Below, one piece after another: positions 1,302-24,239 of a stretch of 64,000 bases of DNA. The translations under genes were made by a program, and so were the position numbers. Under the pieces are notes generated by a model, which ran no database searches, was not told the origin of the DNA, and saw only the letters and a program-made list of their open reading frames with translations. Source of the stretch: a virus; the IMG/VR virus record IMGVR_UViG_3300025941_000667, positions 1 through 64,000 of that record. One strand, written 5' to 3'. The number at the start of each line of letters is the position of its first letter. Within the stretch, counting starts at the first letter, position 1.

Positions 1302-3199
1302 TGCCCCGTCTTCCTTACCGACTTCCCCAACCAGGATTGAGCCGTGTCACCGGCTTGTACCCGCAGGTTATCGTGGGCGGGATCTTTTCCCTAGTGATCG
1401 CGTGCTGGATTGGGACACAAGTGGCCGCAGGGAAAACGGGGTACGCGCCAGTGCTAGGCCCCTCATGGTTCGGCCACATTTATCCGCCCTGGAGTCTCGT
1501 GTTGTGGTCTATTCGACCGTACCAAGACCCCATTGTCGCGGCGGCGTTATGGTCAGGGCTGAAAGCGTTCTTCGTCTGGCTCACGGTGGGTGCGCTTGTC
1601 GTGTTTGGCGCTGCATTTACCAAAGCGAAGCAGTACGAAGAGCAATCGGACATTAAAGGAAGTGGACACCTGGGAACGTTAGCACAGGCTCACGAGCACG
1701 GATTGATAGGACTCTTAGTACACAAAGGTATCCTGCTTGGAAACTTCGAGCACAAGGGCCAACTCTTCCCCCTCTGGGATACAGGCACCGCGCCGTTGCT
1801 CCTTGTGGGGCCGAACCGTTCGGGTAAAGGACTCTGTTTTGTGATTCCTAATCTCCTCATGAGTGTGGGCATGAGTAGTGTCGTATTTGATCCCAAGGGC
1901 GAGAACTGGGACAAGACAGCAGGCTATCTCAAATCACAAGGACATCTAGTGATGAAGGTAGACCCGACAAACGACGAGGCTACTCCCTGGAATGCGCTCT
2001 TGGAGATGCCGGAGTACCCGCATGATGTCGCGTTTGCGCAGAACTTAGCACTCGCGTTTCGGCCACCATTGAGTGAGCACCAAACAAAAGGCGACCCGCA
2101 CTGGGAACTCACAGCAGATGAATTCATTGTTGCAGTGATGCTCCATGTCTTCTACGCAGAACCAGAGAAGGGCATGGGGCGATGTTGGGAAGTGATGGTG
2201 AACCCAAATCGTGACATTGCGCAGCTCCTTGAGTATCTCAGTACCGCAGAGCACGATCCCACAAGTAAGCATGGATGGAAAGACACAACGGGTAAGCCGA
2301 CGAAAACACACCCCAACGTACAGCTGGCGGTTGGGGCTATGCAGAACAGCAGCTTAGGGCACCAAGCGTCAGTCGTCACGACAGCCCAAGCCTACTTTGG
2401 ATTGTTCCGTGATCCCATCATTAAACAGAACACGCGAGAAAGCGGGTTCCATGTTGGCGATCTTCTTGATGAGACTCTTCCTCCCATCACCATTTATTTG
2501 ACCACGCCAATCTTTGATCAAGAGCGGGTGCGACCTTTCCTGCGGCTATTCTTCTTTCAACTGTGGCGGGTTGTTAGTCAGAGGCAGGTAGACCGTAGTG
2601 TGGGATGGAGTCTGTCACGCAAAGGACCACGGCAACTCTTTCTGCCGATGGACGAGTATCCGGTGCTTGGTAGGATGGAGACCTTTGAGGCGATTCTTCC
2701 GAACCTCGCCTCACTCGGAGTAAAAGTCGCCTTGATTGTGCAGACGCCGGCGCAGATGCGAGCGATTCACGGACAGAACGGCAGTGAGGCTATCCTCGAC
2801 AACTGCACCATTAAGATCTTCTTCCGGCCAGAAGGAACCAAGACAGCAGCGGACATCTCGCGCCTGTGTGGGACCATGACGGTCTCCACTGAGACACTGA
2901 CCTACACCGGCCATCGGTGGAGTGTGTTCTTGCCGCATGTAATAGCGGGTATCAACCGAGAAAAGCGCGGCGTGCTCGAAGAGGATGAAGTATTGCGGCT
3001 TGAAGATTTGATGGCGCTTGTTATCCATAAGGGCGTGCCCTATTTAGCGCTCAAGATTCCATACACCGAAGACATCGTACTGAGTCAACGAGCAGCGATA
3101 CCAGCACCAACAGTAAGTGATTCTTTATTTAAGAGGAGCAAGACATGGGGAGCAACGGGAACGGGCGGCGGCAAGCTAGTCTGGAACCTCACGCCATAG
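1301..3199 (+). CDS. traG: Type IV coupling protein TraG/VirD4
   Basis: N-terminal TM segments, Walker A GPNRSGKG, VIPNLL, FDPKGEN, Walker B-like MDEYPVLG, ILDNC. Confidence 0.93.
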   Translation: MPRLPYRLPQPGLSRVTGLYPQVIVGGIFSLVIACWIGTQVAAGKTGYAPVLGPSWFGHIYPPWSLVLWSIRPYQDPIVAAALWSGLKAFFVWLTVGALVVFGAAFTKAKQYEEQSDIKGSGHLGTLAQAHEHGLIGLLVHKGILLGNFEHKGQLFPLWDTGTAPLLLVGPNRSGKGLCFVIPNLLMSVGMSSVVFDPKGENWDKTAGYLKSQGHLVMKVDPTNDEATPWNALLEMPEYPHDVAFAQNLALAFRPPLSEHQTKGDPHWELTADEFIVAVMLHVFYAEPEKGMGRCWEVMVNPNRDIAQLLEYLSTAEHDPTSKHGWKDTTGKPTKTHPNVQLAVGAMQNSSLGHQASVVTTAQAYFGLFRDPIIKQNTRESGFHVGDLLDETLPPITIYLTTPIFDQERVRPFLRLFFFQLWRVVSQRQVDRSVGWSLSRKGPRQLFLPMDEYPVLGRMETFEAILPNLASLGVKVALIVQTPAQMRAIHGQNGSEAILDNCTIKIFFRPEGTKTAADISRLCGTMTVSTETLTYTGHRWSVFLPHVIAGINREKRGVLEEDEVLRLEDLMALVIHKGVPYLALKIPYTEDIVLSQRAAIPAPTVSDSLFKRSKTWGATGTGGGKLVWNLTP

Positions 3200-11751: not shown

Positions 11752-14274
11752 CTATGGTGCCGCGGCTTCTTTCACGGTGTCATAGAGTTCGCGTTGCTGT
11801 TCAGTGAGACCAATCTTTTTTTCTGGAATCATGTCTTTGAGATCATCGGCAAGCTCCGGATCAAGCTGCTTGATCGTTGAAAACGCGGATTTTGCATCCG
11901 CCCAGGTTTTTGCTTTTTTGAGCTGCACGGACGCGGAGCGCAGCAGTCGCATTTTTGTGATGTCATAGTGTGCCGGATCAATCTCCGTGATATTCATGCC
12001 TGTCCAGAACTTGAATGATTCTAGTGAAGGATCTTTGATGACAGGCTGTTTACTCACTGGATCAATCACGAGTTTGCCCAGGCCAAATAAATTTTCTGCG
12101 GTGCGGGTAGGGAGTCCTGGGATAATTTTACTGAACTCCTGCATAAAAGTTTGTGAACGCAGAAGCGGTGCGGGTGGTTGTGTGACATGGACAAAGGGAG
12201 GATGCCAATCTAACGCGGTTCGCTCCTTTATTCCTTCAATTAACCGACCGTAAGGAATAAACGGCTTGAGTAGCCGGGCTGCGGTCACACCGACAGGACT
12301 TGCTTGCTTTTCAGACGAGGCAACAGACGCAAGTTCAATTGCTTTGAACAGCGGGCCAGTATGAGGAACATTCGAACCAATGGTCGAGAGCATATCAGCA
12401 GTCGGCATCACGCCCGTGCGTTTCCAGTGCGTTCCGGCATTGAGTAGGAGCTGAAGGTTGAACCACGGAATGTCGGCAACAGAAGCCCAGCGTTCCTTCC
12501 CTTCTTTAGTGGAACCAAACTTGAGGCGGCCACTCGTCGAGACAGAGGGTGGACCGCCAGGTAAAGGAGAGCGGTCTTCGTCATCCGGACGAGGCCAGAA
12601 CATATAGGAGAGCAGCCCCATAATCATGCCGGCAGTAAGCAGGCGAGCCGCACGTTCGCGGAAGTTGCCCATTCCTGGAAAGCGAGGGTCGGGTTCTATT
12701 TGCGCAAACGGCGCCGCAAAGTAGTGCCCTAACATCTGCGCGGCTTTGTACGGATAGGTAGGAAACAATGAGAGCAAGGGCGCGATGGGGTTTGCCTTCA
12801 TCTTCTTGAGCGTGGTCGAGAGATTGTCATAATCCAATCCCCAAGTATCCACGGCTTGACGCATGGCGGCAAACGCTTTCTTTTCGGCAAGGATAGTATC
12901 TCGGTCAATCTTGATGCCTTGCGCGCGGAGATGCGCAACGGCAATAGCGCGCTTTACCCAGTTATCAATGGCTCCAATCGGTAACAGCATGACGCTATTG
13001 ATACGGTCGCCAAGGCCCGGATTATCTTCCATGTTCTGGCCTACCAAGTTGGAGCGTCCACCGATGAGCGGATCACTGAGCGCATGTATGGTGTCAGGCA
13101 TCAAGGCATCGAGCGGGCCATAGACGGCGTACATGAAGGGCTTAAAGTTTCCTCCTGCCATGATGCCGTGCGCAAGGGAATCTGTTACAAAGGTTGCCCA
13201 TTGAACCGAGGAACCGATAAAGTTCTTGAATATCGTACCAGGGTAAGCCAGCAGGGTGCCGGAGGTAAACCGCAAAAATGAACGGATAGCATCTCGGGTG
13301 GCGTGTAGCTCTTCTACAGGCTCAATAAACTGTTTCCATTCCCTGTAGAGCGGAGCGGGGATTTGTCTGCCGCCTGCAAGGTTCCCGATAAATTTCCCGC
13401 GTCGCGTGAGCTGTGTTTTTGGAATCTCCACCCAACCGGGATGCAGCTCGCCCGTTTTGGGAATAGGGTCGGTAACGAGCGGAACGAGATCACTCATCAT
13501 GTCGTTCCAGACTTTTTCCTGTGCTAGCTCTGTCCAGCTTTTTTGCGCGGCTTTCTCAAAGTGTTCGACGAATCCGGGCTTTTCCGTCCGATGGAACCGC
13601 GCACTCGCAGTGCGGCGCGCCAGCCGATACTTTTTACTCGTCAGTGATCGAAGAAATCCGTTAAATCCCTTATCAAAGTAATGGTGAATATAGCCTTCAA
13701 CCGTTTGGTCAATGCCGGCCTGCTGCGCGAGCACCTTCTGTTCTTCAATCAGCCATTTCACAACCTTTTGTTGATTGGGCGTCATGTCATTCCAGAACTG
13801 CTGTCCTTGTGCTGCGGTATAACGTGGCCGATCAACGATATCGTTCCCATTGGCATCCTTAATGCGGGCGCCGGTCTTGGGGTCCGTGCGATAGATGCTC
13901 GTGCCAAACACGGGATTGCCGTTCGTGTCGAGTTCACGGATTGACTCAACCGCATGAAACATACGCTGTTGGTCAGCATCGGTGAGTTGATCACGAGAAA
14001 GGCCAAGGCGGCGCGCGAAATGAGTAAGACCGGCAGCGCCGCGGTTACCTAGATACTTAGAGAGAATAGGAATCTTGGCGATACGGTTAGCAATCTGGTG
14101 GTCCGAGAGGTCATGCATCCGCTGTTCGATGGACGTGGCAACGTCGTGCGCCTCGACCTGCATCCGCGCGTGGCCGAGTTGCTCAACGGCAAAGGCTTCT
14201 GGCCCTCGTTTGTTTCCGAGATATCCCGCAAGTTCCTGCCGTCGCGTGCCGAATGTTTCTTGAAGGTCAGCCAT
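11752..14274 (-). CDS. Large helical putative internal virion/ejection protein (LPD38-like C-terminal type)
   Basis: 840 aa directly after the polyvalent gene; GYIHHY, LFPTYP, FKFWTGMNI features. Confidence 0.6.
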   Translation of the reverse strand: MADLQETFGTRRQELAGYLGNKRGPEAFAVEQLGHARMQVEAHDVATSIEQRMHDLSDHQIANRIAKIPILSKYLGNRGAAGLTHFARRLGLSRDQLTDADQQRMFHAVESIRELDTNGNPVFGTSIYRTDPKTGARIKDANGNDIVDRPRYTAAQGQQFWNDMTPNQQKVVKWLIEEQKVLAQQAGIDQTVEGYIHHYFDKGFNGFLRSLTSKKYRLARRTASARFHRTEKPGFVEHFEKAAQKSWTELAQEKVWNDMMSDLVPLVTDPIPKTGELHPGWVEIPKTQLTRRGKFIGNLAGGRQIPAPLYREWKQFIEPVEELHATRDAIRSFLRFTSGTLLAYPGTIFKNFIGSSVQWATFVTDSLAHGIMAGGNFKPFMYAVYGPLDALMPDTIHALSDPLIGGRSNLVGQNMEDNPGLGDRINSVMLLPIGAIDNWVKRAIAVAHLRAQGIKIDRDTILAEKKAFAAMRQAVDTWGLDYDNLSTTLKKMKANPIAPLLSLFPTYPYKAAQMLGHYFAAPFAQIEPDPRFPGMGNFRERAARLLTAGMIMGLLSYMFWPRPDDEDRSPLPGGPPSVSTSGRLKFGSTKEGKERWASVADIPWFNLQLLLNAGTHWKRTGVMPTADMLSTIGSNVPHTGPLFKAIELASVASSEKQASPVGVTAARLLKPFIPYGRLIEGIKERTALDWHPPFVHVTQPPAPLLRSQTFMQEFSKIIPGLPTRTAENLFGLGKLVIDPVSKQPVIKDPSLESFKFWTGMNITEIDPAHYDITKMRLLRSASVQLKKAKTWADAKSAFSTIKQLDPELADDLKDMIPEKKIGLTEQQRELYDTVKEAAAP

Positions 14275-17200
14275 CTTCCCAGTTTACTAGGAGAAGGAGG
14301 GACAGGGGGAGCCATACCGGGAAGATAGGAGGCTTTTGGGGCAGCAACACGGAAGGTGGGGATCTCTCCGTTCTCGTCAGCGAAGATGTCCGCACGCTTC
14401 ACTTGCTGGCTTGGATTAAATGAAATCTCGGGAGTCACGTAATCCATGAGGGCGCCGGAGCGAATCAACTTCGTGGCGGCGGCATACATTTTATCAGTCC
14501 CGGTAGCTACGCTCGGTTGTTCCACATACGCAAACGCCTCTGCCGCACCAAAGCGCAGCAATCCTGCTTTGAGATGGGCTTTTGCTTTCTCTGTGTCGAG
14601 GAAGGTCTGTTCATGGATAGATTGGGCGGCACGGACACGCCCCGTTGCATCACGGTACACGATAGCGACCCAGCCCGTAGGAGCTTGGAGTTCTTTTCCG
14701 ACGAGTGCGACACTTCCACTACCTAGAACCATTTTCCCTAACACCTCATGTGGAATTGGCGCTTGATTGGGCTCAAGGGGGTCTTCCGTGCCAGTCACGG
14801 AACGATCAAGCGCATAGTGAGTAGATTTGCCTTTGGGATCAATATAGGCATAGGTGTCAAAGTTAATAATGACATGACCGGCGTAGCGGCCACCACCTCC
14901 TTCCCTATCCAAGAGTGCAGGGACAACGGAAGAAAAACGGCGATCATCACCAGAAGGGGCAGGATTGCCTCCCGGGTGATTATGAGACAACCACCATTTG
15001 ACGTTTCCGTTGCCATTGTCTTCTATCTTCAGAATTCGATCTTTGATGTTTTGGATAAAGGCAGATTCTTGTCCTTTGGGAATGACCTGCACGGTTCCAG
15101 GAAGCCGCGAGGTAAACGCTTCATGATCCACGACCTTCCCTTCTTGGGCGTAGACGATATGGAAGGTTTCATACTGCTTGTTCCGGTAGACACGGGCAAT
15201 GGTGGCAAGGTCTTGGGCGGTGCGTAACTCTTGACCGTGCAGCGTTATGAACCCTTTCTCTTCGAGGTCCGTGCGGATCGCTTGTGCTGTCGTAATAACG
15301 TCTGGAGTTCCTCGGTCCCGCCCAAGCGTTCCTCCTGCAGTGGATAGGTCTTCGGCTGACGGGATAAGCTGCTGGGTGAGCTGCTCGGCGTGGACTTTGG
15401 CGTCGGCTCTGGTTTTGGGTTCTGGGAAGAGTGCAATTTGTTCATAACTTGACTGTACCTGATCCGGCCCATACTCTGCCGTCGGTTCAGACACGCCTTC
15501 TATCTTCAAATGATTTTCAGTCGCTACGCGAAACGCCATTGCTTTTTCAGCAGTGGGGAACAGAAATCCTTTAGCAAACCGACTCCAACCTCCACTGTTC
15601 GCTTTTGCGAAGCCTGCAACCTTCGCATACTGGTCTGAAGACAATGTCGGGCGGATATTCACCTTCTGAACAGTTTTATTGATACGAGTATCGAGATGTT
15701 CTGTTTGAGTAGTGAGCGGCTTCGGGCCTGCCGGTTCGCCTTGCGGGGGCAAGGTGGCACCGCGACTTGTGAGCTGGTCCGCAAGATTTTCCTGTCGAGA
15801 CGGCATATTTATATGCTCAATACGATCAAACAGCTCGTTGATCGTTTTGGCGTCGGAGAGATCAAGATGCGGCCCGTCGGGGATCTGCCTGACTGCCTCT
15901 GGAGTGCTGGCTTTCTGCAACACCACAAGCCGCGTATTCACCCCTGTCCCAGCCCGCTCGAAGGTGACAGAGGGAAGATTGATCGTTGCTATGGGATAGA
16001 CATTCCCGCCGGGTTCTTTGCTATCCAGCTCTTGAAATTGTTCCCAGCGCCTATCTGCCATCCCACCACGGGGCAGTATCGCGACAATGCGGCCCCCTTC
16101 TGCAAGATGCCCGGCGGCTTTAATCAGATGCTCAAATGCTGTCTTGCCTCCGGACCCGTACGGCGGGTTCATAAGAATCGCTTGATACTTATTGCTTACA
16201 TGGTGATTCTCGAACGTATCTTCAATGACGGTCGCCTTATTATTGGCAAGTCGCGCACGGTTCGCGAGTTCAGCGGATGGTTCAATCAGTTTCGTGGTCG
16301 TATCTTCCGGGATAAAGCGTCCGATGGCGCCATGGCCGGCAGACGGCTCTAACACATGATTACCTTTACGAATATCGGCAAACTCGACCATTTTGAAGCC
16401 GATAGGTTCCGGCGTCGGGAAGTAGTCTTGGCCTGCCCGTTGGTCGCGGCGGGCGTTGAGTTTTTGTTGCGCCCAGTAATACGTTTTTGCTTTGGCGAAT
16501 CCTGTCAGCGTTTGTTGCGCGGCCACGGACTTGTCGTACTCTTTGCCGCCTGTTCCTTCTCCTTCGTAAGGCGTGAAATGCTCAGCTCCGCCATAGGCGT
16601 CAATGAACGACTGCCGGAGGCCACGAGCAAGCACGCCCATACCGAGGTTCTCGGCAGTAGAAGCCCGCTGCGCAATGGACGTAGCAAAAGCGCGGGTTTC
16701 CCAGGACGTACCGGTGGTCATGTAGCGCTGGATCGCATTCGAGGCTTGCCCGATACGATAAATTCGCCCTTCTATTTGAATAGTCGCGACAGGCCGGGAT
16801 GGCATGCCGAGATTGATATTGACACGCTGATATTTGCCAGTCGTATCATGCAGGCTAATCCCTTCGCGGCCCGCATCGGACTGCACCACAATAATACGAT
16901 GGGGGTCAGCACCGGGCTGTTCTGAGTTGAATTGATCAATAGCTTGGCTGCGTTTTTTCTTTGGGACGGTTCCGTTGAAAAAGACCGCTTCAGGGAAGGC
17001 TTTTTTCAACGTATCAATGGGCGCTTCAAGGTCACTAAAATCCAGATTCGCAAGATCGGTATGCTCTCGGTTGAATTTGTCAATCAGGTCATGGGTATAC
17101 CAAGTTTCCGTCTTATAGGTTCCGTTCGACTGTTTGACGGGAATAGTCTGTGCTTCGTTGACGTAATCTTTCTTCTCAAACTTGAATGGATGAAATCCAC

Positions 17201-20200
17201 CGCCTTTGTTGAAGTCGTGGAACACAACGACTTTTCGGCCAAGATCCAGATGCGCCTGAATCTGGGGAATCGCCTCTTTTGCTTTGATCGCCTCAAGCAA
17301 GAATTGCCGTTTGTGAAAATCGAAGTTCTGTTCTGCGACTCTATAGAGCGGGTCAAAGACACCGCCGCTACCATTGCGGAGAATGTCAAGTCCGCGGTCA
17401 ATGTCCTGACCAATCGCGGAAGGGGTGAGAACGAAGCGCCGATCATAATCAAAGGGGACATCGAGTTGACGGCCAACAAGCGCGCCTTGGTCCTGGAGCC
17501 ATTGATTAAAGTTCTGCTCCATGATTTCTGAGTTGACATCGGCAGTCGGCTGTGTGAGTTTGCCAGTCCGCATTCGATAGCCGAAATGCTGGATCATGAA
17601 GGCTTGTTGTTTGTCAGGTGCATTGTAACCGCTACCACCCCGAAGTCCTTCCTGAAAGATGCGGGATGGCGGAACATAATGGAACAGGAATCCTTCTGCG
17701 GCATCGACGTTTGGCGCCCACGCAAATGGGGTCGCGGACAGGAACGTCACCAGCGGGCGATCACCTTCCTGCCAACGTTTTTGATAGAGCGGGCGCTCGC
17801 GCTTTTCAATCGCATGAACGGCATCGCCTGCTTCTTGGATTTCCCGTTCCATCGCCATGATTTCTTGGTCTGTGGCATCCTGAGAGACATGACGCATGGC
17901 CTGTGCAACACGATCATAGCGTTCGTATTCTCTCGGATACGCCGTGCGCGCCCAATCAAGAAACGCTACATGGTGCCCTGTCAGTGCGCGAAACATGCGG
18001 AGTGTTTCATTGACCGCGCCCGTTTTCTCGCTCGACATACTATGGGATTCGTCAAGAATAATGAGATCCCAGGTCCGGGGCGCCACGAGCGAAATGTTTT
18101 GGTGCATGTTGGCGTAGGTCGTCACCACCGGGCCACTGCCGCCATTCTCTGTTGTACTTGTCAGAGGGCGAAGGGGGAGCCCGACCAACGCTGCCCGAGT
18201 CGCCCACGTTTCCACGAGTTCTTGCGTCGGAGCAAGCACGAGAATGTTCTTTTTGCCTGCCAAGAATTGACGGTAGGCAATGCCAAGCCCCGTAAACGTT
18301 TTGCCGGTCCCAGGTCCATTGGTGAACAGCATGCCGTGCTCTTTGACTTTTCCGTCCGCATCAAAGAACCGTTGCTCAGCTTTGAGCACGTCGTTTTGCT
18401 GTTCAGGCAGGAGGTAAGGAACGGTGCGGGCTATGTCTCGGGCGTCTCCGAAGGTGGGGCGTTTGTCAGCATCGGGGAGGGCGTTGAAGTCCTGTTGTCG
18501 GGCAAGACGCTCTCCTTCTGTGGCTGTACCAAGTTCTTGAACATCGTCAACAATGTCTGCTGTTCGCTGTTCGTCAGTGGGTGATCCCGCTTCGCCGCCG
18601 CCACTGCTTCCGCTGGGCTCGTTATCTCCGGTAGCGGATTTCTCAAGGTCAAGTTGGCCGTCTGGTGTATATACTCGCTGATTGCCTGATGTTCCGCCAG
18701 CAGCGGGGCTAGTGTCTGGTACGCCACGATCACCGGCGACGAGAGGCCCTGTGCCCGTAGCGCCTTGGCCTGTTCCTGTAATGTTTGGTTGAGTTCCTCC
18801 TGGTTCATTGAGAACAGGCGATGGAGCGCCGGGTGTTTCAGGTGGACCGTTCGGGCGATCCGGTTCAGGACTGGGGCCGCGATGTGGTACATTCTGTTTC
18901 TCCTGCTGTAAGTCGTGACGAAGGCGCCGCAGATAAGGGACGGCATTTTGTCCATACGTTGTAATCGCGTCACGAAAGAAATCGGTTAAGGGGCGACCCA
19001 TTTGCGCAAAATCATCAAGCGTCTCCAGTAGCAGCGGCTTCACGCGCTCGTAGCGAGCCTCATCCGGGACGGGAGGAGGCGCAGGCGCACCATACGGCGC
19101 GTTCTCCTCTTTAAGGGAGCCGAACTCTTGCAATAATTGCAGTTCGCGCGCAACGCGGGCGGGGGTAGGATCAATCCCTTTATTGACCAAGGATTGCCGA
19201 GCTTGCTCTTCAGGGGTGGCTTGCACTTTCGGAGTACGCGGAGCACGGGGGGCGCGAGGAGGGACAGACGCGCCTTGTGGTCGGGACGCGCGAGGAGGAC
19301 GAGGAGTCGCAGGAGGAGCTGGTGGCTGTGCTTCTTGAAGGGCGTTCTCGAAATCATCGTCGGACAAATCAGTGACCGCGGCCCGAGAGGACGCGGGCGC
19401 CGCTACTGGAGCGGGCGGTTCTTCAGCAGGGGACTCACCGGGGGTGGTGGGTTCGGGAACTTCACCCTCGGGGCCAGTTTCGGGGCTGGGAGGCTCACCC
19501 TGTGTGCTGGGACTAGATGGGGGTGTTGGTTCTGGAGCCGTTGGTACAGCGCCTGGAGTACCTTCTGTTGTACTAGCGGGTTCGTCTGAGAAAAGCGAAG
19601 TTTGACCACCGCCTGTTTCTCCTTCATAAGTTAAGGCCGCACTCCACAAGTCGGCCTTGCTGGGAGTCGGCCCTTTGGGTCCAAACAATTCATGTTGCCG
19701 GGGATCGCCTGTTGTTTCAACGGCATCGAGATACCGGGTAATGAGTGAACCGAGTTTCTTTCCACTGCGTGCATACTTCTCTAGGGTATCCAGCACGTCT
19801 TTTTCAAATGGGGTCGCCTTCGGAGCACCAAACAAAGCGCCTTGTGGATTGTTCAAGTAATTATTGACATTAATGCCCTTCGCCCGCAGACTCGACAGCG
19901 TATTTGCGGCAGTGGCAAGGTCGGAGGCGATGTTCAACGGATAGCGAGCGCCTGCGTCAATGCGCTCTTGGAGCTTCACAAACCGGGGCGCGGTGACCAC
20001 CAGCGCATTCATGATGGCTTTGACATTTGCGTCAGGGTCTTCCCCGATCCGAGTCACCATCTCAGGATTGCCGTAGGCTTTCGCAATGATCGCGTTCCGT
20101 ACTCGCTGAATGCCGGTGGTATTAAGACCGCTGCCGTCCTCCATGTAATAGTTCGGCCACTCATTCTTAGGGACGAGGTCCGTAAAGAACTGGTTAATGA

Positions 20201-23200
20201 AACCGGCATTTTGGGCGCTGTTCAGGTTGCCGTCTTCGGCTGGAACAAACTGCCGCACGAGTTCAGGACTCATGTTCTTTGCGTCCATGAACGCAATTTC
20301 TTTGGGCGACATACCGGCCACGCCAGGATTGTTGGCCTCCTGCGCAAACTTGACCCGGTTCGGAACTTCGGTCTGTCGAACCCGCACCAAGACAGGTGCT
20401 TTCATGTTCTGGATAGCCTGCGGGTCGAGACCCCAGCGGGGCGCATTGTCTACGAGCCACTGTTTGTAGTCGCCCGCCGTGCCGCGGGCGTAGGCTTTAC
20501 GCAGCCCCATGGTGCGGCCATTGCCGCTTTCTACGGTCTTGTCAGGGCCAACAATCGGAGCACCGGGAGATGGGGTAGGTGTATCGCCTAGCCGGGCAGT
20601 ATCAGGCTTATTCCCAATCTCTTCCACTTGAAGACGAAGTGATTGTTGATCACGGTTACGTGGTTGCAGTTCCTGCGGGTAATCAGGATTTGCGCGGTAA
20701 TTGTCATCGTGCGAGGTCACCAAGTCAGGCGCTTCCGCAACAGCTAACCGGGTATCAAATTTTGTCCCTGCTTCGGTGGTCACAGGATGGGGGTGGCCCA
20801 TCAGGAAGCCGGAAGGGGTTTCTTGTGGAGGCGGTTCTTGACTTTGTGAAGAGGATTGTGGTATAGTAAGGGGTGCTCCCAGTTCTGAACTAGGAGCACC
20901 AGACACGTTACTCGTAGGAGGAGCAACATGCCCTTGATCACTTGTGTCTGTTTTTTCTGTGGGACTCAATTTTTGCGGCGGCCTTCCCAAATCACTCGGG
21001 GAAGGGACCATACTTTCTGTGGTCTGCCCTGCCATTTTGCGTATCGTCGTGTCGGCAATATCACTGCGAAGGGATATCGAGTTTTTCGGATCAAAGACAA
21101 GCGGATCTCCGAGCACCGCTTGGTCATGGAGCGACACTTGGGACGACGACTTGATCCCACGGAGGACATTCATCACATTGACGGGAACGGACTGAACAAC
21201 GCTATTGAAAATTTGAGGGTCATGCAGCGCTCTGATCACAACGCTCATCATCATCCGTTGACTTGGGATATCGAAGCCGCCAAGGCCATGCTCACGAAAG
21301 GCCGGACTGTTCGAGAACTCGCGCAGACGATCGGCGTCAGTGAGAGTGCTATCGCGCATGCCTTGAAAAGGCGCAACATTTCCGTGAATAGGCTGAGGAA
21401 GGACGGGATGAACAGGAAAATTGAGGCTGCCCGCGCCTTGCGGGAGCAAGGATGGACCTTCCGGCGCATTGCTAGGGAGTTGGGTTTCTCCCTCAGTTAT
21501 CTTTTTCGTGCTTTGCGGTAACGATGACTCTTCTTTTGCGCTGGAAAGCGCGGTTTGGTGTGGCAGTTGCTCTTGACTTGGCGCAGGCTCTTCTGTCTGT
21601 TGTTCCGGCGTAGGAGCAGGTGCTTCTTGTGGAGCAGGTCCAGCTTCTACGACTTTCGGAGGTTCGTCCACTTTAGGAGATTCGAATTTCGGAGCCTCAG
21701 TTTCGAGAGGGGCTATGGGTTTCTCAGGAGCAGTCGGGACTTGGATAGGCGGCTTCTTTCCGCGTGCTAACGCTTCCGCAACCGTGCGCAGCTGGGCAGG
21801 CTGCATCTTATCCAAATGGGATTCCCCCGTGAGTTGCTTTGTCCACTCACCAAACGCTGGATTCTTCTCCGCATCGGATTCTATCCCATGACGCTGTGCA
21901 ATCGTATGGATATCTGTTGGACGTAAAGTGTATTCATTGCCCGGCTCAATAGTCTTATTAAGATTAGGATGTGCCTCAGTTGGAGCCTCTTCTTTTGTCG
22001 CTGGAGACAATATGGGTTCCGGCGCTGTCGGTGGAGTAACTGGTGGCGTTACCGGAGCTTCCTGCTTCGCCTTCGGCTGTATCCCGACCTCTTCAATCAT
22101 CTTCCGCAACGGACTCGCCTGCTTGATAGAGATGCCAAGTTCTTTACGAATTTCGGATATAGTTGGAACTCGACCAAGCCCCTGCGCATACTGGAGTGCG
22201 CGTTCTTCGAGACTGCCGGCGGGAGGAGCAGCAAGTTTTACTTGGGGCGGCTGTGCAACAATCGGGGGTGGCGACTGGGTCGATACTGGGGAAGTGGACT
22301 GCGCTGCATTGACATCTCGGAGAAATGGAGAGTCTTCAGGAACATCTACATAACGGATTTTCTTTCCGTTGACCGTCACAGTTGTGAGCGAGTATTTCTT
22401 CGGAAGACTCGCGGCGAGATTAGGAAAATCGGACTCATACAAACGCGCCATCCCTGGAGGAATACGCCCTTCACCATATTTTGGCGCTGGGGATGGCGCT
22501 TGTTCAGGTTGAACAGGGGGCTGTTCAGTTTTTGGCGCTGCCTGTTCAGTTTGAGGAGCCGGCTGTTCAAGAGGGGCGCCCTTTGCGGGTGGGGGGAGTG
22601 TAGGCGGCTGCGGGCCAGCTGGACGGAGCTTACGATAAGCCTTATCAATCGCTGACGTCTCTTGCGGCGTCAGATTCTTGACTTCCAACCACTTTGAGTA
22701 GAGTTCTTGGGCTTCGGGACCAAGAGCGGCAATGTCTTGTGGGGTGAGTTCTTGCCCGTCAGTCCAGCGGGTCAGTGCTTGATTTTGTGGGTCATTTGCC
22801 GGGGCATTCTTCCGTATATTTTTGAGCGTAGAACGAAGATTACTAGCAACCGCATCAACTGGCGCATCGTTAGGTAATCCCAAATCCTTTTTAAGGCCAA
22901 GATATTCCCGTTCACCTAATGACAACGGACGACCAAGAATAGACGAAGCCGAGAGTGGTTCACCAACAGCTTTTACACCAAGAGCAAAGCCACCGAGTTG
23001 CCCCGCCTGTTCACCGATCGCTTTCCCGCGCGCAGCGCCCGCAGGTCCACCAAGTGCACCTCCTGTCATTGTCCCAGCAACTTCAGTAAGTGGGGTGAGC
23101 GCTTTCGCTGCCGCCATGCCACCCACAATACCCATCGGGTGAGTAGCTAAGGCAGGAATCATGGAAAGTGCAAGAATATCGCCAACTCCAGGATTTGGTT

Positions 23201-24239
23201 CCGACGGTGGTGGCGTTTCTCCAGGTTGTGTTCCCATTGGCGGCAAAGGTTCCATACCCAGAGGCGAAGGAGGACCACCAAATGTTTTTTCATAGGCGCG
23301 TTCGAGCTGGGAAAGCAGAGGAATCCCCATTCCTTCAGGCGCTGATTTCTTTATTTCAGGAATCTGTCCAGGAATCCGCCACTGTGTATCAGGAGAAACA
23401 AGAGGAGGAGAAGTCACAGGAGCAGGGGTGGCAGGCGGGAGACTCGCTCCTGTGACTGGGGGGACAACGGGAGGAGCTGTAGGTTGGGAAAGAACGGGGA
23501 GAGGCGCACCAAAGGCGCCAAGCAACGCGCCGGTCTCTCCAGTAGGTAACTGTTGAGGAAAGAGGTCGGGGGCCGGGGCAGGCGGCATAAACTCTTTCGG
23601 AACAACACCCCCAAAGGTTTTCGCGTAGCGATAGGGGGCTTCGGCTTGTTCTTGAGGAGATAACGCCGCAAACTCCGGCGACTTGATAATCTCGGAAAAA
23701 GGAGGAGGAGTGGTCGAGACCGGCGCGGACGGTGCAGACTGCCCCGCGCTGGTAATCCGCGCCAGATAATCGCGGGTTTCCGGAGGAATACCACGTTCCC
23801 AATCAAACTCACCATACTTGTTAATTGCGGCCTTGACCGTACCAATCCCCGCATTGTAGGCAGCCAGCGCTTTGCGCTTTGACCCCAATTGGTCAATCAG
23901 CGACCGCATGTACTTTGCCTGCCCATACATACTCAGGTCAGGGTCGGAAGGGTCAACACCCTGTTCTAGCGCGGTCGCGGGGACGAACTGACTGACACCC
24001 TGCGCGCCCGCAGGCGAACGAGCAGCATTCTTCCAGTTACTTTCTTGTTGAATTTGACGGGCAAAAACATCAGGGTCGAGTCCATAGTGTTCCGCAGCGC
24101 GAGCAGCAACAGACTTACCAAAAGTATCGACATACCTCTGGGGGGCCTCTTTTTGTTGCTGGGGAGTGAGCGCCTGAAATTCAGGCGAGCGCATGATCTC
24201 TGCAAGAGATGGGGGAGCCAGTGGTGTCTGTTCAGCCAT
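14049..24239 (-). CDS. Giant DarB-like polyvalent virion protein: SLT lytic transglycosylase, DdrB-like ParB, SF2 helicase, N6-adenine MTase, MPN/JAB domain
   Basis: QQESNW..SPAGAQGVSQF..AAYNAG; LVTSH..YPQELQPRNR..VESGNGR; GPGTGKT, IILDESH, LSATP, AGREGISLHD, QIEGRIYRIG; YFPTP, LEPSAGHG, NPPY; HNHPGGNPAPSGDD..GHVII. Confidence 0.88.
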   Translation of the reverse strand: MAEQTPLAPPSLAEIMRSPEFQALTPQQQKEAPQRYVDTFGKSVAARAAEHYGLDPDVFARQIQQESNWKNAARSPAGAQGVSQFVPATALEQGVDPSDPDLSMYGQAKYMRSLIDQLGSKRKALAAYNAGIGTVKAAINKYGEFDWERGIPPETRDYLARITSAGQSAPSAPVSTTPPPFSEIIKSPEFAALSPQEQAEAPYRYAKTFGGVVPKEFMPPAPAPDLFPQQLPTGETGALLGAFGAPLPVLSQPTAPPVVPPVTGASLPPATPAPVTSPPLVSPDTQWRIPGQIPEIKKSAPEGMGIPLLSQLERAYEKTFGGPPSPLGMEPLPPMGTQPGETPPPSEPNPGVGDILALSMIPALATHPMGIVGGMAAAKALTPLTEVAGTMTGGALGGPAGAARGKAIGEQAGQLGGFALGVKAVGEPLSASSILGRPLSLGEREYLGLKKDLGLPNDAPVDAVASNLRSTLKNIRKNAPANDPQNQALTRWTDGQELTPQDIAALGPEAQELYSKWLEVKNLTPQETSAIDKAYRKLRPAGPQPPTLPPPAKGAPLEQPAPQTEQAAPKTEQPPVQPEQAPSPAPKYGEGRIPPGMARLYESDFPNLAASLPKKYSLTTVTVNGKKIRYVDVPEDSPFLRDVNAAQSTSPVSTQSPPPIVAQPPQVKLAAPPAGSLEERALQYAQGLGRVPTISEIRKELGISIKQASPLRKMIEEVGIQPKAKQEAPVTPPVTPPTAPEPILSPATKEEAPTEAHPNLNKTIEPGNEYTLRPTDIHTIAQRHGIESDAEKNPAFGEWTKQLTGESHLDKMQPAQLRTVAEALARGKKPPIQVPTAPEKPIAPLETEAPKFESPKVDEPPKVVEAGPAPQEAPAPTPEQQTEEPAPSQEQLPHQTALSSAKEESSLPQSTKKITEGETQLPSNAPEGPSLLPQGAGSLNFPVHPVLPQPIHGNVAPFQGMRDSTLTDADRLREFSNSPAFREHGLGGFDIPSQRMMMSVVIRALHDPQIFNSVVQSVPVNVMNVLRGIKSSSQVSLHDQAVLGDPLVFDPKNSISLRSDIADTTIRKMAGQTTESMVPSPSDLGRPPQKLSPTEKTDTSDQGHVAPPTSNVSGAPSSELGAPLTIPQSSSQSQEPPPQETPSGFLMGHPHPVTTEAGTKFDTRLAVAEAPDLVTSHDDNYRANPDYPQELQPRNRDQQSLRLQVEEIGNKPDTARLGDTPTPSPGAPIVGPDKTVESGNGRTMGLRKAYARGTAGDYKQWLVDNAPRWGLDPQAIQNMKAPVLVRVRQTEVPNRVKFAQEANNPGVAGMSPKEIAFMDAKNMSPELVRQFVPAEDGNLNSAQNAGFINQFFTDLVPKNEWPNYYMEDGSGLNTTGIQRVRNAIIAKAYGNPEMVTRIGEDPDANVKAIMNALVVTAPRFVKLQERIDAGARYPLNIASDLATAANTLSSLRAKGINVNNYLNNPQGALFGAPKATPFEKDVLDTLEKYARSGKKLGSLITRYLDAVETTGDPRQHELFGPKGPTPSKADLWSAALTYEGETGGGQTSLFSDEPASTTEGTPGAVPTAPEPTPPSSPSTQGEPPSPETGPEGEVPEPTTPGESPAEEPPAPVAAPASSRAAVTDLSDDDFENALQEAQPPAPPATPRPPRASRPQGASVPPRAPRAPRTPKVQATPEEQARQSLVNKGIDPTPARVARELQLLQEFGSLKEENAPYGAPAPPPVPDEARYERVKPLLLETLDDFAQMGRPLTDFFRDAITTYGQNAVPYLRRLRHDLQQEKQNVPHRGPSPEPDRPNGPPETPGAPSPVLNEPGGTQPNITGTGQGATGTGPLVAGDRGVPDTSPAAGGTSGNQRVYTPDGQLDLEKSATGDNEPSGSSGGGEAGSPTDEQRTADIVDDVQELGTATEGERLARQQDFNALPDADKRPTFGDARDIARTVPYLLPEQQNDVLKAEQRFFDADGKVKEHGMLFTNGPGTGKTFTGLGIAYRQFLAGKKNILVLAPTQELVETWATRAALVGLPLRPLTSTTENGGSGPVVTTYANMHQNISLVAPRTWDLIILDESHSMSSEKTGAVNETLRMFRALTGHHVAFLDWARTAYPREYERYDRVAQAMRHVSQDATDQEIMAMEREIQEAGDAVHAIEKRERPLYQKRWQEGDRPLVTFLSATPFAWAPNVDAAEGFLFHYVPPSRIFQEGLRGGSGYNAPDKQQAFMIQHFGYRMRTGKLTQPTADVNSEIMEQNFNQWLQDQGALVGRQLDVPFDYDRRFVLTPSAIGQDIDRGLDILRNGSGGVFDPLYRVAEQNFDFHKRQFLLEAIKAKEAIPQIQAHLDLGRKVVVFHDFNKGGGFHPFKFEKKDYVNEAQTIPVKQSNGTYKTETWYTHDLIDKFNREHTDLANLDFSDLEAPIDTLKKAFPEAVFFNGTVPKKKRSQAIDQFNSEQPGADPHRIIVVQSDAGREGISLHDTTGKYQRVNINLGMPSRPVATIQIEGRIYRIGQASNAIQRYMTTGTSWETRAFATSIAQRASTAENLGMGVLARGLRQSFIDAYGGAEHFTPYEGEGTGGKEYDKSVAAQQTLTGFAKAKTYYWAQQKLNARRDQRAGQDYFPTPEPIGFKMVEFADIRKGNHVLEPSAGHGAIGRFIPEDTTTKLIEPSAELANRARLANNKATVIEDTFENHHVSNKYQAILMNPPYGSGGKTAFEHLIKAAGHLAEGGRIVAILPRGGMADRRWEQFQELDSKEPGGNVYPIATINLPSVTFERAGTGVNTRLVVLQKASTPEAVRQIPDGPHLDLSDAKTINELFDRIEHINMPSRQENLADQLTSRGATLPPQGEPAGPKPLTTQTEHLDTRINKTVQKVNIRPTLSSDQYAKVAGFAKANSGGWSRFAKGFLFPTAEKAMAFRVATENHLKIEGVSEPTAEYGPDQVQSSYEQIALFPEPKTRADAKVHAEQLTQQLIPSAEDLSTAGGTLGRDRGTPDVITTAQAIRTDLEEKGFITLHGQELRTAQDLATIARVYRNKQYETFHIVYAQEGKVVDHEAFTSRLPGTVQVIPKGQESAFIQNIKDRILKIEDNGNGNVKWWLSHNHPGGNPAPSGDDRRFSSVVPALLDREGGGGRYAGHVIINFDTYAYIDPKGKSTHYALDRSVTGTEDPLEPNQAPIPHEVLGKMVLGSGSVALVGKELQAPTGWVAIVYRDATGRVRAAQSIHEQTFLDTEKAKAHLKAGLLRFGAAEAFAYVEQPSVATGTDKMYAAATKLIRSGALMDYVTPEISFNPSQQVKRADIFADENGEIPTFRVAAPKASYLPGMAPPVPPSPSKLGRWLTFKKHSARDGRNLRDISETNEGQKPLPLSNSATRGCRSRRTTLPRPSNSGCMTSRTTRLLTVSPRFLFSLSI
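18431..18892 (-). CDS. Probable overprinted gene (153 aa) in the +1 frame inside the giant ORF
   Basis: AGGAG SD 7 nt upstream of ATG; product looks amphipathic-helical while the host frame is a P/G/T-rich linker. Confidence 0.55.
   Translation of the reverse strand: MYHIAAPVLNRIARTVHLKHPALHRLFSMNQEELNQTLQEQAKALRAQGLSSPVIVAYQTLAPLLAEHQAISEYIHQTANLTLRNPLPEITSPAEAVAAAKRDHPLTNSEQQTLLTMFKNLVQPQKESVLPDNRTSTPSPMLTNAPPSETPET
20838..20867 (+). promoter_or_regulatory. Sigma70-like promoter for the nested HNH gene
   Basis: TTGACT-N18-TATAGT with TG in the extended -10 position. Confidence 0.65.
20872..20900 (+). promoter_or_regulatory. Inverted repeat/hairpin in the HNH leader
   Basis: GGTGCTCC-CAGTTC-T-GAACTA-GGAGCACC. 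Confidence 0.6.
20928..21521 (+). CDS. HNH endonuclease (Zn-finger, HNH, HTH) nested antisense in the giant gene
   Basis: CFFC..FCGLPC; GYRV..EHRLVMERHLGR.L...EDIHHIDGNGLNNAIENL....SDHNAHH; two HTH-like segments; AGGAGG SD. Confidence 0.9.
   Translation: MPLITCVCFFCGTQFLRRPSQITRGRDHTFCGLPCHFAYRRVGNITAKGYRVFRIKDKRISEHRLVMERHLGRRLDPTEDIHHIDGNGLNNAIENLRVMQRSDHNAHHHPLTWDIEAAKAMLTKGRTVRELAQTIGVSESAIAHALKRRNISVNRLRKDGMNRKIEAARALREQGWTFRRIARELGFSLSYLFRALR

Follow-up and report, generated by a model that had tools for sequence, protein, structure and literature searches.

How a homing-type endonuclease gene can lie inside another gene without breaking it is the question raised by one locus in the first 64 kb of the 78,217-bp IMG/VR virus record IMGVR_UViG_3300025941_000667 (hereafter, the window). 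Homing endonuclease genes are textbook selfish DNA, which depends on introns, inteins or the gaps between genes so as not to kill its host gene. In the window, a gene for an HNH endonuclease lies on the + strand within a giant polyvalent-protein open reading frame (ORF) of the - strand, and that frame stays open across it. We consider it likely that this cassette (~20817-21586) is an autonomous HNH homing-type gene from a lineage that lives backwards, codon-aligned, between the domains of giant polyvalent genes. Judged by its codons and its relatives, the arrangement is well beyond chance and the cassette belongs to a large lineage of antisense-nested HNH genes.

A preliminary description of this DNA had listed a promoter, a leader palindrome, an AGGAGG ribosome-binding site and an intact 197-amino-acid (aa) zinc-finger/HNH/helix-turn-helix (HTH) ORF, and we found all of them (Table 1). 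The promoter-like site is the sole one between 19500 and 23000 on either strand, and terminator-like sites were not found on the - strand in this interval. The predicted fold of the leader repeat is a hairpin with an 8-bp outer stem (GGUGCUCC/GGAGCACC). Of 11 nested relatives, 5 have a promoter-like site at most 150 nt upstream of starts chosen by eye, relative to ~0.04 expected per locus, and the relatives L009, L011 and L015 retain GGAG-N7-ATG before a conserved MP..C..C N-terminus.

The encoded protein matches Pfam HNH_3 (PF13392) at residues 63-105 with 43.1 bits relative to a cut-off of 24.8, and it also matches Pfam HTH_38 and HTH_23, together with numerous HNH families of PHROG (best E 6e-20). 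In an alignment of 22 sequences, H63, H82, H83, N91, N95 and H104 are invariant and H108 is nearly so, and the four cysteines of the zinc ribbon (C8, C11, C31 and C35) are invariant in close relatives. The AlphaFold2 model of the protein, made with 22 relatives, has a predicted local distance difference test score (pLDDT) of 93.1. A Foldseek search with this model gave no match at E<=0.001; the top match, I-HmuI 1u3e, is weak (E 0.046, TM-score 0.27-0.30), and a sequence search against solved structures returned HTH matches only. The protein is absent from a 15-billion-protein collection because gene callers take the giant ORF only. Hence, six-frame searches were needed to obtain its relatives.

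The two genes are in the same register. Since 24239 minus 20930 is 3309, which is divisible by 3, the - strand codons occupy the same triplets as the HNH codons, and the HNH gene has none of the three codons TTA, CTA and TCA that would place a stop in the host frame; both points had been anticipated in the preliminary description. Its caveat that these codons are uncommon is also sound and can be quantified, as TTA, CTA and TCA together make up 1.92% of the codons of the element and the probability that the frame stays open over 197 codons is ~0.02. By synonymous resampling of the HNH protein with the codon usage of the element itself, we found 0 stop-complement codons relative to 3.6 expected (P 0.02). 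For the eight NTA and NCA codons, each of which reads as stop, Tyr, Cys or Trp on the other strand, there were 0 relative to 11.7 expected (P = 3e-6). In the giant protein, the run free of Tyr, Cys and Trp covers residues 800-1180 (nucleotides (nt) 20700-21842).

Leucine codon choice in the HNH gene is shifted as well, with TTG used for 10 of 18 leucines relative to 16% in the element. TTG is a one-step synonymous escape from TTA, and its complement, CAA, is one step from a stop codon. Robustness against near-stop codons was considered as a cause of the Tyr/Cys/Trp depletion and was rejected, since TTG is enriched rather than avoided; hence, the depletion is not simple near-stop avoidance. Instead, it looks like selection on the composition of a translated peptide.

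The same constraint was found across 21 nested HNH genes, which have 0 stop-complement codons relative to 68.5 expected and 26 Tyr/Cys/Trp-complement codons relative to 150 expected, both from host-gene codon usage. The two classes make up 4.3% and 7.2% of codons in non-nested relatives and 0% and 0.7% in the nested genes. The eight-codon absence and the family results carry the case beyond chance.

We found 80 loci with HNH relatives in an alignment-based scan of IMG/VR. In 13 of the 15 best, as well as in locus L044, the HNH gene is antisense and codon-aligned in a host frame that stays open for 1459 to >2800 codons. Same-strand nesting in a shifted frame is seen at about a dozen loci of greater distance, and the remainder are free-standing. 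The six best bacterial relatives, from species-representative genomes, are also antisense and codon-aligned, in frames of 1119-2809 codons, and lie on contigs of metagenome-assembled genomes (MAGs) labelled Pseudomonadota, Burkholderiales, Gammaproteobacteria, Desulfuromonadaceae, Sphingomonas and Opitutia. The layout recurs throughout the clade of this HNH gene. Three more distant relatives on bacterial MAG contigs (L093, L103 and L138) have opposite-strand open frames of 464-969 codons that are not codon-aligned, possibly another nesting mode or chance. The best named relative, in Streptococcus phage Javan616 (L004, 37187-37813), is 49% identical over 102 aa and lies between two ORFs both annotated as lysin; hence, the lysin gene there is split or interrupted by an intron.

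The antisense host genes encode polyvalent proteins (with InPase, ART-PolyVal, RadC, LPD38 and ResIII), and what they have in common with the giant protein of the window is the HNH shadow and, in a few, helicase or methylase domains. Since they otherwise share nothing with it, the insertion sites are non-orthologous. The same-strand hosts are N6/N4 DNA methylases (PF01555) split by the insert. In a quick maximum-likelihood tree, whose deep branches are unsure, the HNH gene of the window falls in a clade with three antisense-nested genes (97% by the Shimodaira-Hasegawa-like approximate likelihood ratio test), the antisense label needs 4 changes relative to 14.6 in shuffles, and the same-strand methylase group, supported at 98%, forms a neighbouring clade of the antisense group.

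We measured the spread of the arrangement with a profile of 18 antisense 'shadow' peptides searched against 1.84 billion cluster representatives, of which 3457 matched at E<=1e-3. Tightening the threshold to E<=1e-10 left 541, for the most part 1,000-5,000 aa long, and E<=1e-30 left 143. Among the best 149 representatives, 123 have at least 1000 aa (median 2228 aa), 120 of 154 shadow segments lie more than 200 residues from either protein end, and Tyr, Cys and Trp together make up 0.7% of residues inside the segments compared with 3.5% outside. These 149 are known from host-frame proteins only, so the opposite-strand HNH ORFs there are putative. In P0138 (3126 aa) and four other cluster representatives, the profile matches 2-4 separate stretches, so several nested HNH genes may share a single giant gene.

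Table 1. Positions of the cassette, its protein and the surrounding giant gene (window positions unless residues are given)
Feature	Position	Strand	Basis or detail
Left copy of imperfect 35-nt direct repeat flanking the cassette	20817-20851	.	repeat search
Sigma-70-like promoter: -35 TTGACT, 18-nt spacer, TG-extended -10 TATAGT	20838-20867	+	10/12 matches
Leader inverted repeat, between promoter and ribosome-binding site	arms 20872-20885 / 20887-20900	+	14-nt arms, 93% complementary
Shine-Dalgarno AGGAGG, 6 nt 5' of ATG	20916-20921	+	sequence
HNH endonuclease gene, ATG start, 197 aa + stop	20928-21521	+	Pfam HNH_3, HTH_38, HTH_23
Terminator-like hairpin, 15 nt past HNH stop codon	21536-21553	+	7-bp stem, T-rich tail
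Right copy of imperfect 35-nt direct repeat flanking the cassette	21552-21586	.	repeat search
Zinc ribbon of HNH protein	C8, C11, C31, C35
HNH core of HNH protein	~aa 47-108		conserved H63, H82, H83, N91, N95, H104, H108
Two C-terminal HTH modules of HNH protein	aa 114-148, aa 163-197
Antisense segment (reverse complement of HNH gene), giant residues 907-1104	20928-21521	-	without stop, Tyr, Cys, Trp
Giant polyvalent-protein ORF, 3396 aa as read in the window	14049-24239	-	ORF listing, Pfam
SLT domain	giant protein residues 45-145		Pfam
DdrB-ParB domain	giant protein residues 1158-1288		Pfam
SF2/SNF2-type helicase (ResIII/Helicase_C)	giant protein residues ~1949-2544		Pfam
Methyltransferase region (MTS)	giant protein residues ~2628-2722		Pfam
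Giant-gene continuation, in frame in 99.9%-identical relative	11752-14274	-	1-nt difference in A-run near 14280

The frame of the giant gene is open across the cassette, as the preliminary description had it; the length of 3396 aa given there falls short. The ENA protein P0124 (4162 aa) is 99.9% identical to the giant protein and continues through the ORF at 11752-14274, and P0123 is identical to the C-terminus of P0124. An A-run at 14270-14290 (- strand) reads AAA in the window compared with the AAAA implied by the ENA relative; because of this 1-nt difference, the last ~75 codons of the 3396-aa ORF are an out-of-frame read-on. By this comparison, the 840-aa ORF at 11752-14274 is the true continuation of the giant gene, whose length is then ~4162 codons, so that 3396 aa is an understatement. 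The 1-nt difference may reflect an error of assembly, variation in the population or a site of slippage.

That the HNH gene merely landed in a frame that happens to be open, with the giant gene split or dead here, is scarcely credible. Stop-complement codons are indeed rare (1.9%, which gives each gene a 2% chance of staying open), the giant gene is GC-rich and has many long antisense ORFs, and the copy in the window has its frame difference near 14280, yet chance does not account for the eight-codon absence or for the lack of stop-complement codons across the family. Moreover, the layout is clade-wide, hundreds of giant proteins carry the segment internally, and in the near-identical ENA copy a single frame runs intact over 4162 aa.

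The giant protein is polyvalent in that several unrelated conflict-type domains are in one polypeptide, encoded on an IMG/VR virus contig. Searching its residues 560-1560 against 5.8 billion proteins gave 169 homologues, which are polyvalent proteins with only the ParB part in common, and homologues of the giant protein carry ART-PolyVal, LPD and other polyvalent-protein Pfam families. The window has no DNA match among 50,697 phage records, and the genes neighbouring the giant gene have no PHROG match. The SLT and DdrB-ParB content of the giant protein is the sole ground for a putative 'late/virion operon' assignment.

The host sequence at the cassette had been described as linker-like, and this is true of its flanks, since the residues P/E/Q/A/T/S/G/K make up 86% and 76% of the 50-residue flanks of the antisense segment relative to 59% overall; the antisense peptide itself is not low-complexity. 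AlphaFold2 gives this peptide a pLDDT of 59.5, with a helical core (its own residues 57-120) and low-confidence flanks. We also considered whether the antisense ORF is a real domain, and rejected it given the lack of a Pfam family, the pLDDT of 59.5 relative to 93.1 for the HNH protein, and the many non-nested homologues of the HNH protein. Immediately N-terminal of the cassette, as the host frame reads, three tandem 12-nt units with 15-18-nt spacing (21650-21694) encode a repeated PK(F/V)E-type linker.

The two 35-nt repeats that bracket the cassette are identical at 25 of 35 positions and lie 735 nt apart, which is exactly 245 codons. They (D1) are the longest pair of the imperfect in-frame linker-code repeats at the cassette, the others being D3, D4 and D7. 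Recombination between the two D1 copies would excise the cassette in frame. Both copies contain TCTTGACTT; hence, the -35 box of the HNH promoter doubles as ordinary host linker code ('SQE' on the - strand).

We found no Rfam family and no intron ribozyme at E<=1 on either strand of 19500-23000, and no Pfam family, including Hint or intein, at E<=5 in giant residues 860-1160 by profile search. Cysteine is absent from giant residues 800-1180, so there is none at the cassette borders. No Shine-Dalgarno-preceded start is present in the sequence between the cassette and the ParB domain; hence, the 3000 downstream giant residues depend on read-through, and read-through translation of the host appears to be the likeliest route.

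It is very improbable that the segment is removed, whether by a self-splicing RNA that went unrecognised, by something like an intein or by proteolysis. P1 DdrB and other polyvalent proteins undergo proteolytic processing (PMC5512222), and the lack of matches to known ribozyme families leaves room for new ones. These points are set against the negative Rfam and Pfam searches and the lack of border cysteines, and against the fact that a spliced RNA needs no frame free of stop, Tyr, Cys and Trp codons, yet all 21 loci and the 149 representatives show one. Proteolytic trimming of the spacer is compatible with a read-through homing cassette and is not really a rival to it.

The preliminary description had proposed a search for alleles that lack the insert, and the outcome is divided. 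For this giant gene none was found, as detailed below; a related pair of polyvalent proteins shows both presence and absence. Among 119 ParB-type polyvalent homologues, one (P0010) carries an antisense segment, at 2065-2208, and the homologue P0011 aligns contiguously across the site. On this alignment, P0011 is the empty-site counterpart of P0010. The idea of a splicing-free insertion into a tolerant inter-domain stretch is supported by the lack of a splicing signal, by codon purging, by recurrence and by a related empty site.

Near-identical copies come from soil and aquatic runs as well as from an ENA assembly of independent origin, and a ~91%-identical relative (rhizosphere run X4) keeps the cassette with net in-frame indels. 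In the contigs of four DNA runs over 19000-23500 (cover in run X2 ends at 20775), we found no joint that skips the cassette. The X4 relative matches the whole cassette and then departs from the window at 21587/21591, which is the end of the right-hand repeat. Between these two positions it has at least ~400 nt that bear no relation to the window, which points to a linker that varies or to a second insertion.

Conservation of this kind, together with the promoter-like site and the two HTH modules, also bears on whether the HNH protein has been domesticated, serving the element as an exclusion nuclease that acts on competing phages, as a packaging or processing nuclease or as a DNA-binding regulator, with nesting kept for regulatory coupling. 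The cassette is retained in the ~91%-identical relative and in several samples, and HNH proteins with other phage roles are known (PMC3592412). Nevertheless, we regard domestication as unlikely, as the clade occupies non-orthologous sites in unrelated polyvalent genes, only one of 119 ParB-type homologues carries the segment, and P0010 and P0011 differ by its presence. In addition, the nearest non-antisense kin are the homing ShiLan elements (see below) and the HNH gene set within a lysin gene, and patchy distribution is a hallmark of a mobile selfish gene. Hence, on its distribution, the HNH gene of the cassette is probably selfish.

The preliminary description had held that homing endonucleases normally spare host genes by sitting in introns, inteins or intergenic DNA, which is out of date, since a same-strand, splicing-free case has been published: the ShiLan 'hidden HNH' in mycobacteriophage DNA methylases (Arsenault, Gosselin and Gogarten 2025, Genes 16:178; PMC11855218). 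As in ShiLan, the HNH ORF of the window lies within a stop-free host frame without intron or intein features. The proteins are homologous, since residues 4-114 of the HNH protein of the window (P0001) match the hidden frames in the methylases of Filuzino (gp74), Bipolar and OwlsT2W at ~34% identity (E 2e-9), and a hidden frame in a cyanophage methylase is also matched. The antisense peptide, with its helical core and low-confidence flanks, resembles the prediction for the ShiLan insert.

The two arrangements also differ. The Filuzino and Cr-LKS3 matches are on the same strand as their hosts at offset 2, whereas the cassette is on the opposite strand and codon-aligned, and so is not nested in a shifted same-strand frame as ShiLan is. 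ShiLan splits a methylase, whereas the cassette is some 1500 residues away from the methylase region, with the N-terminal part of the giant protein on one side of it and the DdrB-ParB domain on the other. ShiLan has no detectable ribosome-binding site or promoter, and its authors invoke leaderless translation (PMC11855218), whereas the cassette has a promoter-like site and a Shine-Dalgarno sequence. The terms antisense, opposite strand and reverse complement do not occur in PMC11855218. Our literature search found no paper on an HNH gene that lies antisense and codon-aligned within a polyvalent gene, and ShiLan is the only published parallel that we found.

The cassette can also be compared with I-HmuI of the Bacillus phage SPO1 intron (PDB 1u3e), in which an HNH_3 core is likewise followed by HTH modules, although the structural match is weak. 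I-HmuI-type genes are spared by their intron, and free-standing phage HNH and GIY-YIG genes split the host into two polypeptides; in contrast, the host frame here is continuous and there is no ribozyme. Among the relatives, the Javan616 HNH gene lies between two lysin halves. The host, in turn, resembles the polyvalent proteins known from phages and from conjugative elements (Iyer, Burroughs, Anand, de Souza and Aravind 2017, J Bacteriol 199:e00245-17; PMC5512222), among them P1 DdrB/DarB, in joining SLT, DdrB-like ParB, SF2 helicase and N6A-methylase-type domains in one polypeptide. That paper mentions no nested or antisense genes, homing or inteins in polyvalent proteins, and the antisense-HNH segment is neither among the domains it catalogues nor in any Pfam family.

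Several points weigh against a homing cassette that is read through by its host. An empty allele of this giant gene was not found in searches of IMG/VR, JGI contigs and protein collections. The ParB-side flank gave no cassette-free allele among IMG/VR and JGI metagenome contigs, giant residues 575-835 gave one weak match, to a protein without ParB, and a local blastp of giant residues 400-1160 against 119 polyvalent proteins gave no match; the search for an empty allele of the relative L005 returned only the locus itself. Hence, insertion at this locus is inferred from relatives and from the linker-like border repeats. There is no RNA run among the public runs that hold the stretch. The leader hairpin has a fold z-score of just -1.5, which is not significant. 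The promoter calls in the relatives depend on the choice of start codons by eye. Stop avoidance alone (P 0.02) is weak evidence, and the Tyr/Cys/Trp depletion could in principle have a cause other than translation of the host frame. Finally, the copy of the giant gene in the window may be decaying, if the downstream 1-nt frame difference is real.

For a read-through homing cassette, we propose the following mechanism. The host ribosome would read straight through the reverse complement of the cassette, which would add an HNH-antisense spacer of ~200-245 residues between the N-terminal part and the DdrB-ParB domain, and this spacer, with its small helical core and floppy flanks, would be tolerated by the giant protein. 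Transcription from the cassette's own promoter would yield the HNH mRNA, which would be antisense to that of the host; the regulation of the giant gene by this antisense RNA that the preliminary description had raised as a possibility is speculative. The enzyme would bind a long target through its two HTH modules and cut or nick cassette-free alleles in co-infecting relatives, and recombinational repair would then copy the cassette (homing). Only in-frame, stop-free insertions would survive, and ongoing selection on the translated host frame would keep the antisense reading benign.

A broader idea, for which we judge the case to be evenly poised, is that this HNH lineage has 'reverse-strand stealth' codons, such that its opposite strand reads as a harmless, stop-free, Tyr/Cys/Trp-poor spacer, and that this lets it colonise, with neither intron nor intein, the coding DNA for giant injected proteins across thousands of phages and mobile elements. 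If this is true, stealth insertions would be a regular source of inter-domain sequence, of growth in length and possibly of helical modules in polyvalent proteins. Standard gene callers overlook the HNH genes, which are therefore largely absent from protein databases, that of the window being one example.

Beside the same-strand case published in 2025 (PMC11855218), antisense read-through would be a third route by which a homing gene spares its host. The codon statistics indicate that genes on opposite strands shaped each other, and the pair would be a clean example, from nature, of selection acting on antisense dual coding. For annotation and modelling, it matters that giant polyvalent anti-defence proteins have stretches that are not domains but shadows of an opposite-strand gene, and that such nucleases systematically escape gene callers and protein databases. 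The lineage is predicted to provide many natural HNH enzymes with long, HTH-read targets. The arrangement also opens an old question to testing, namely how phage genomes with dense coding are invaded by mobile genes.

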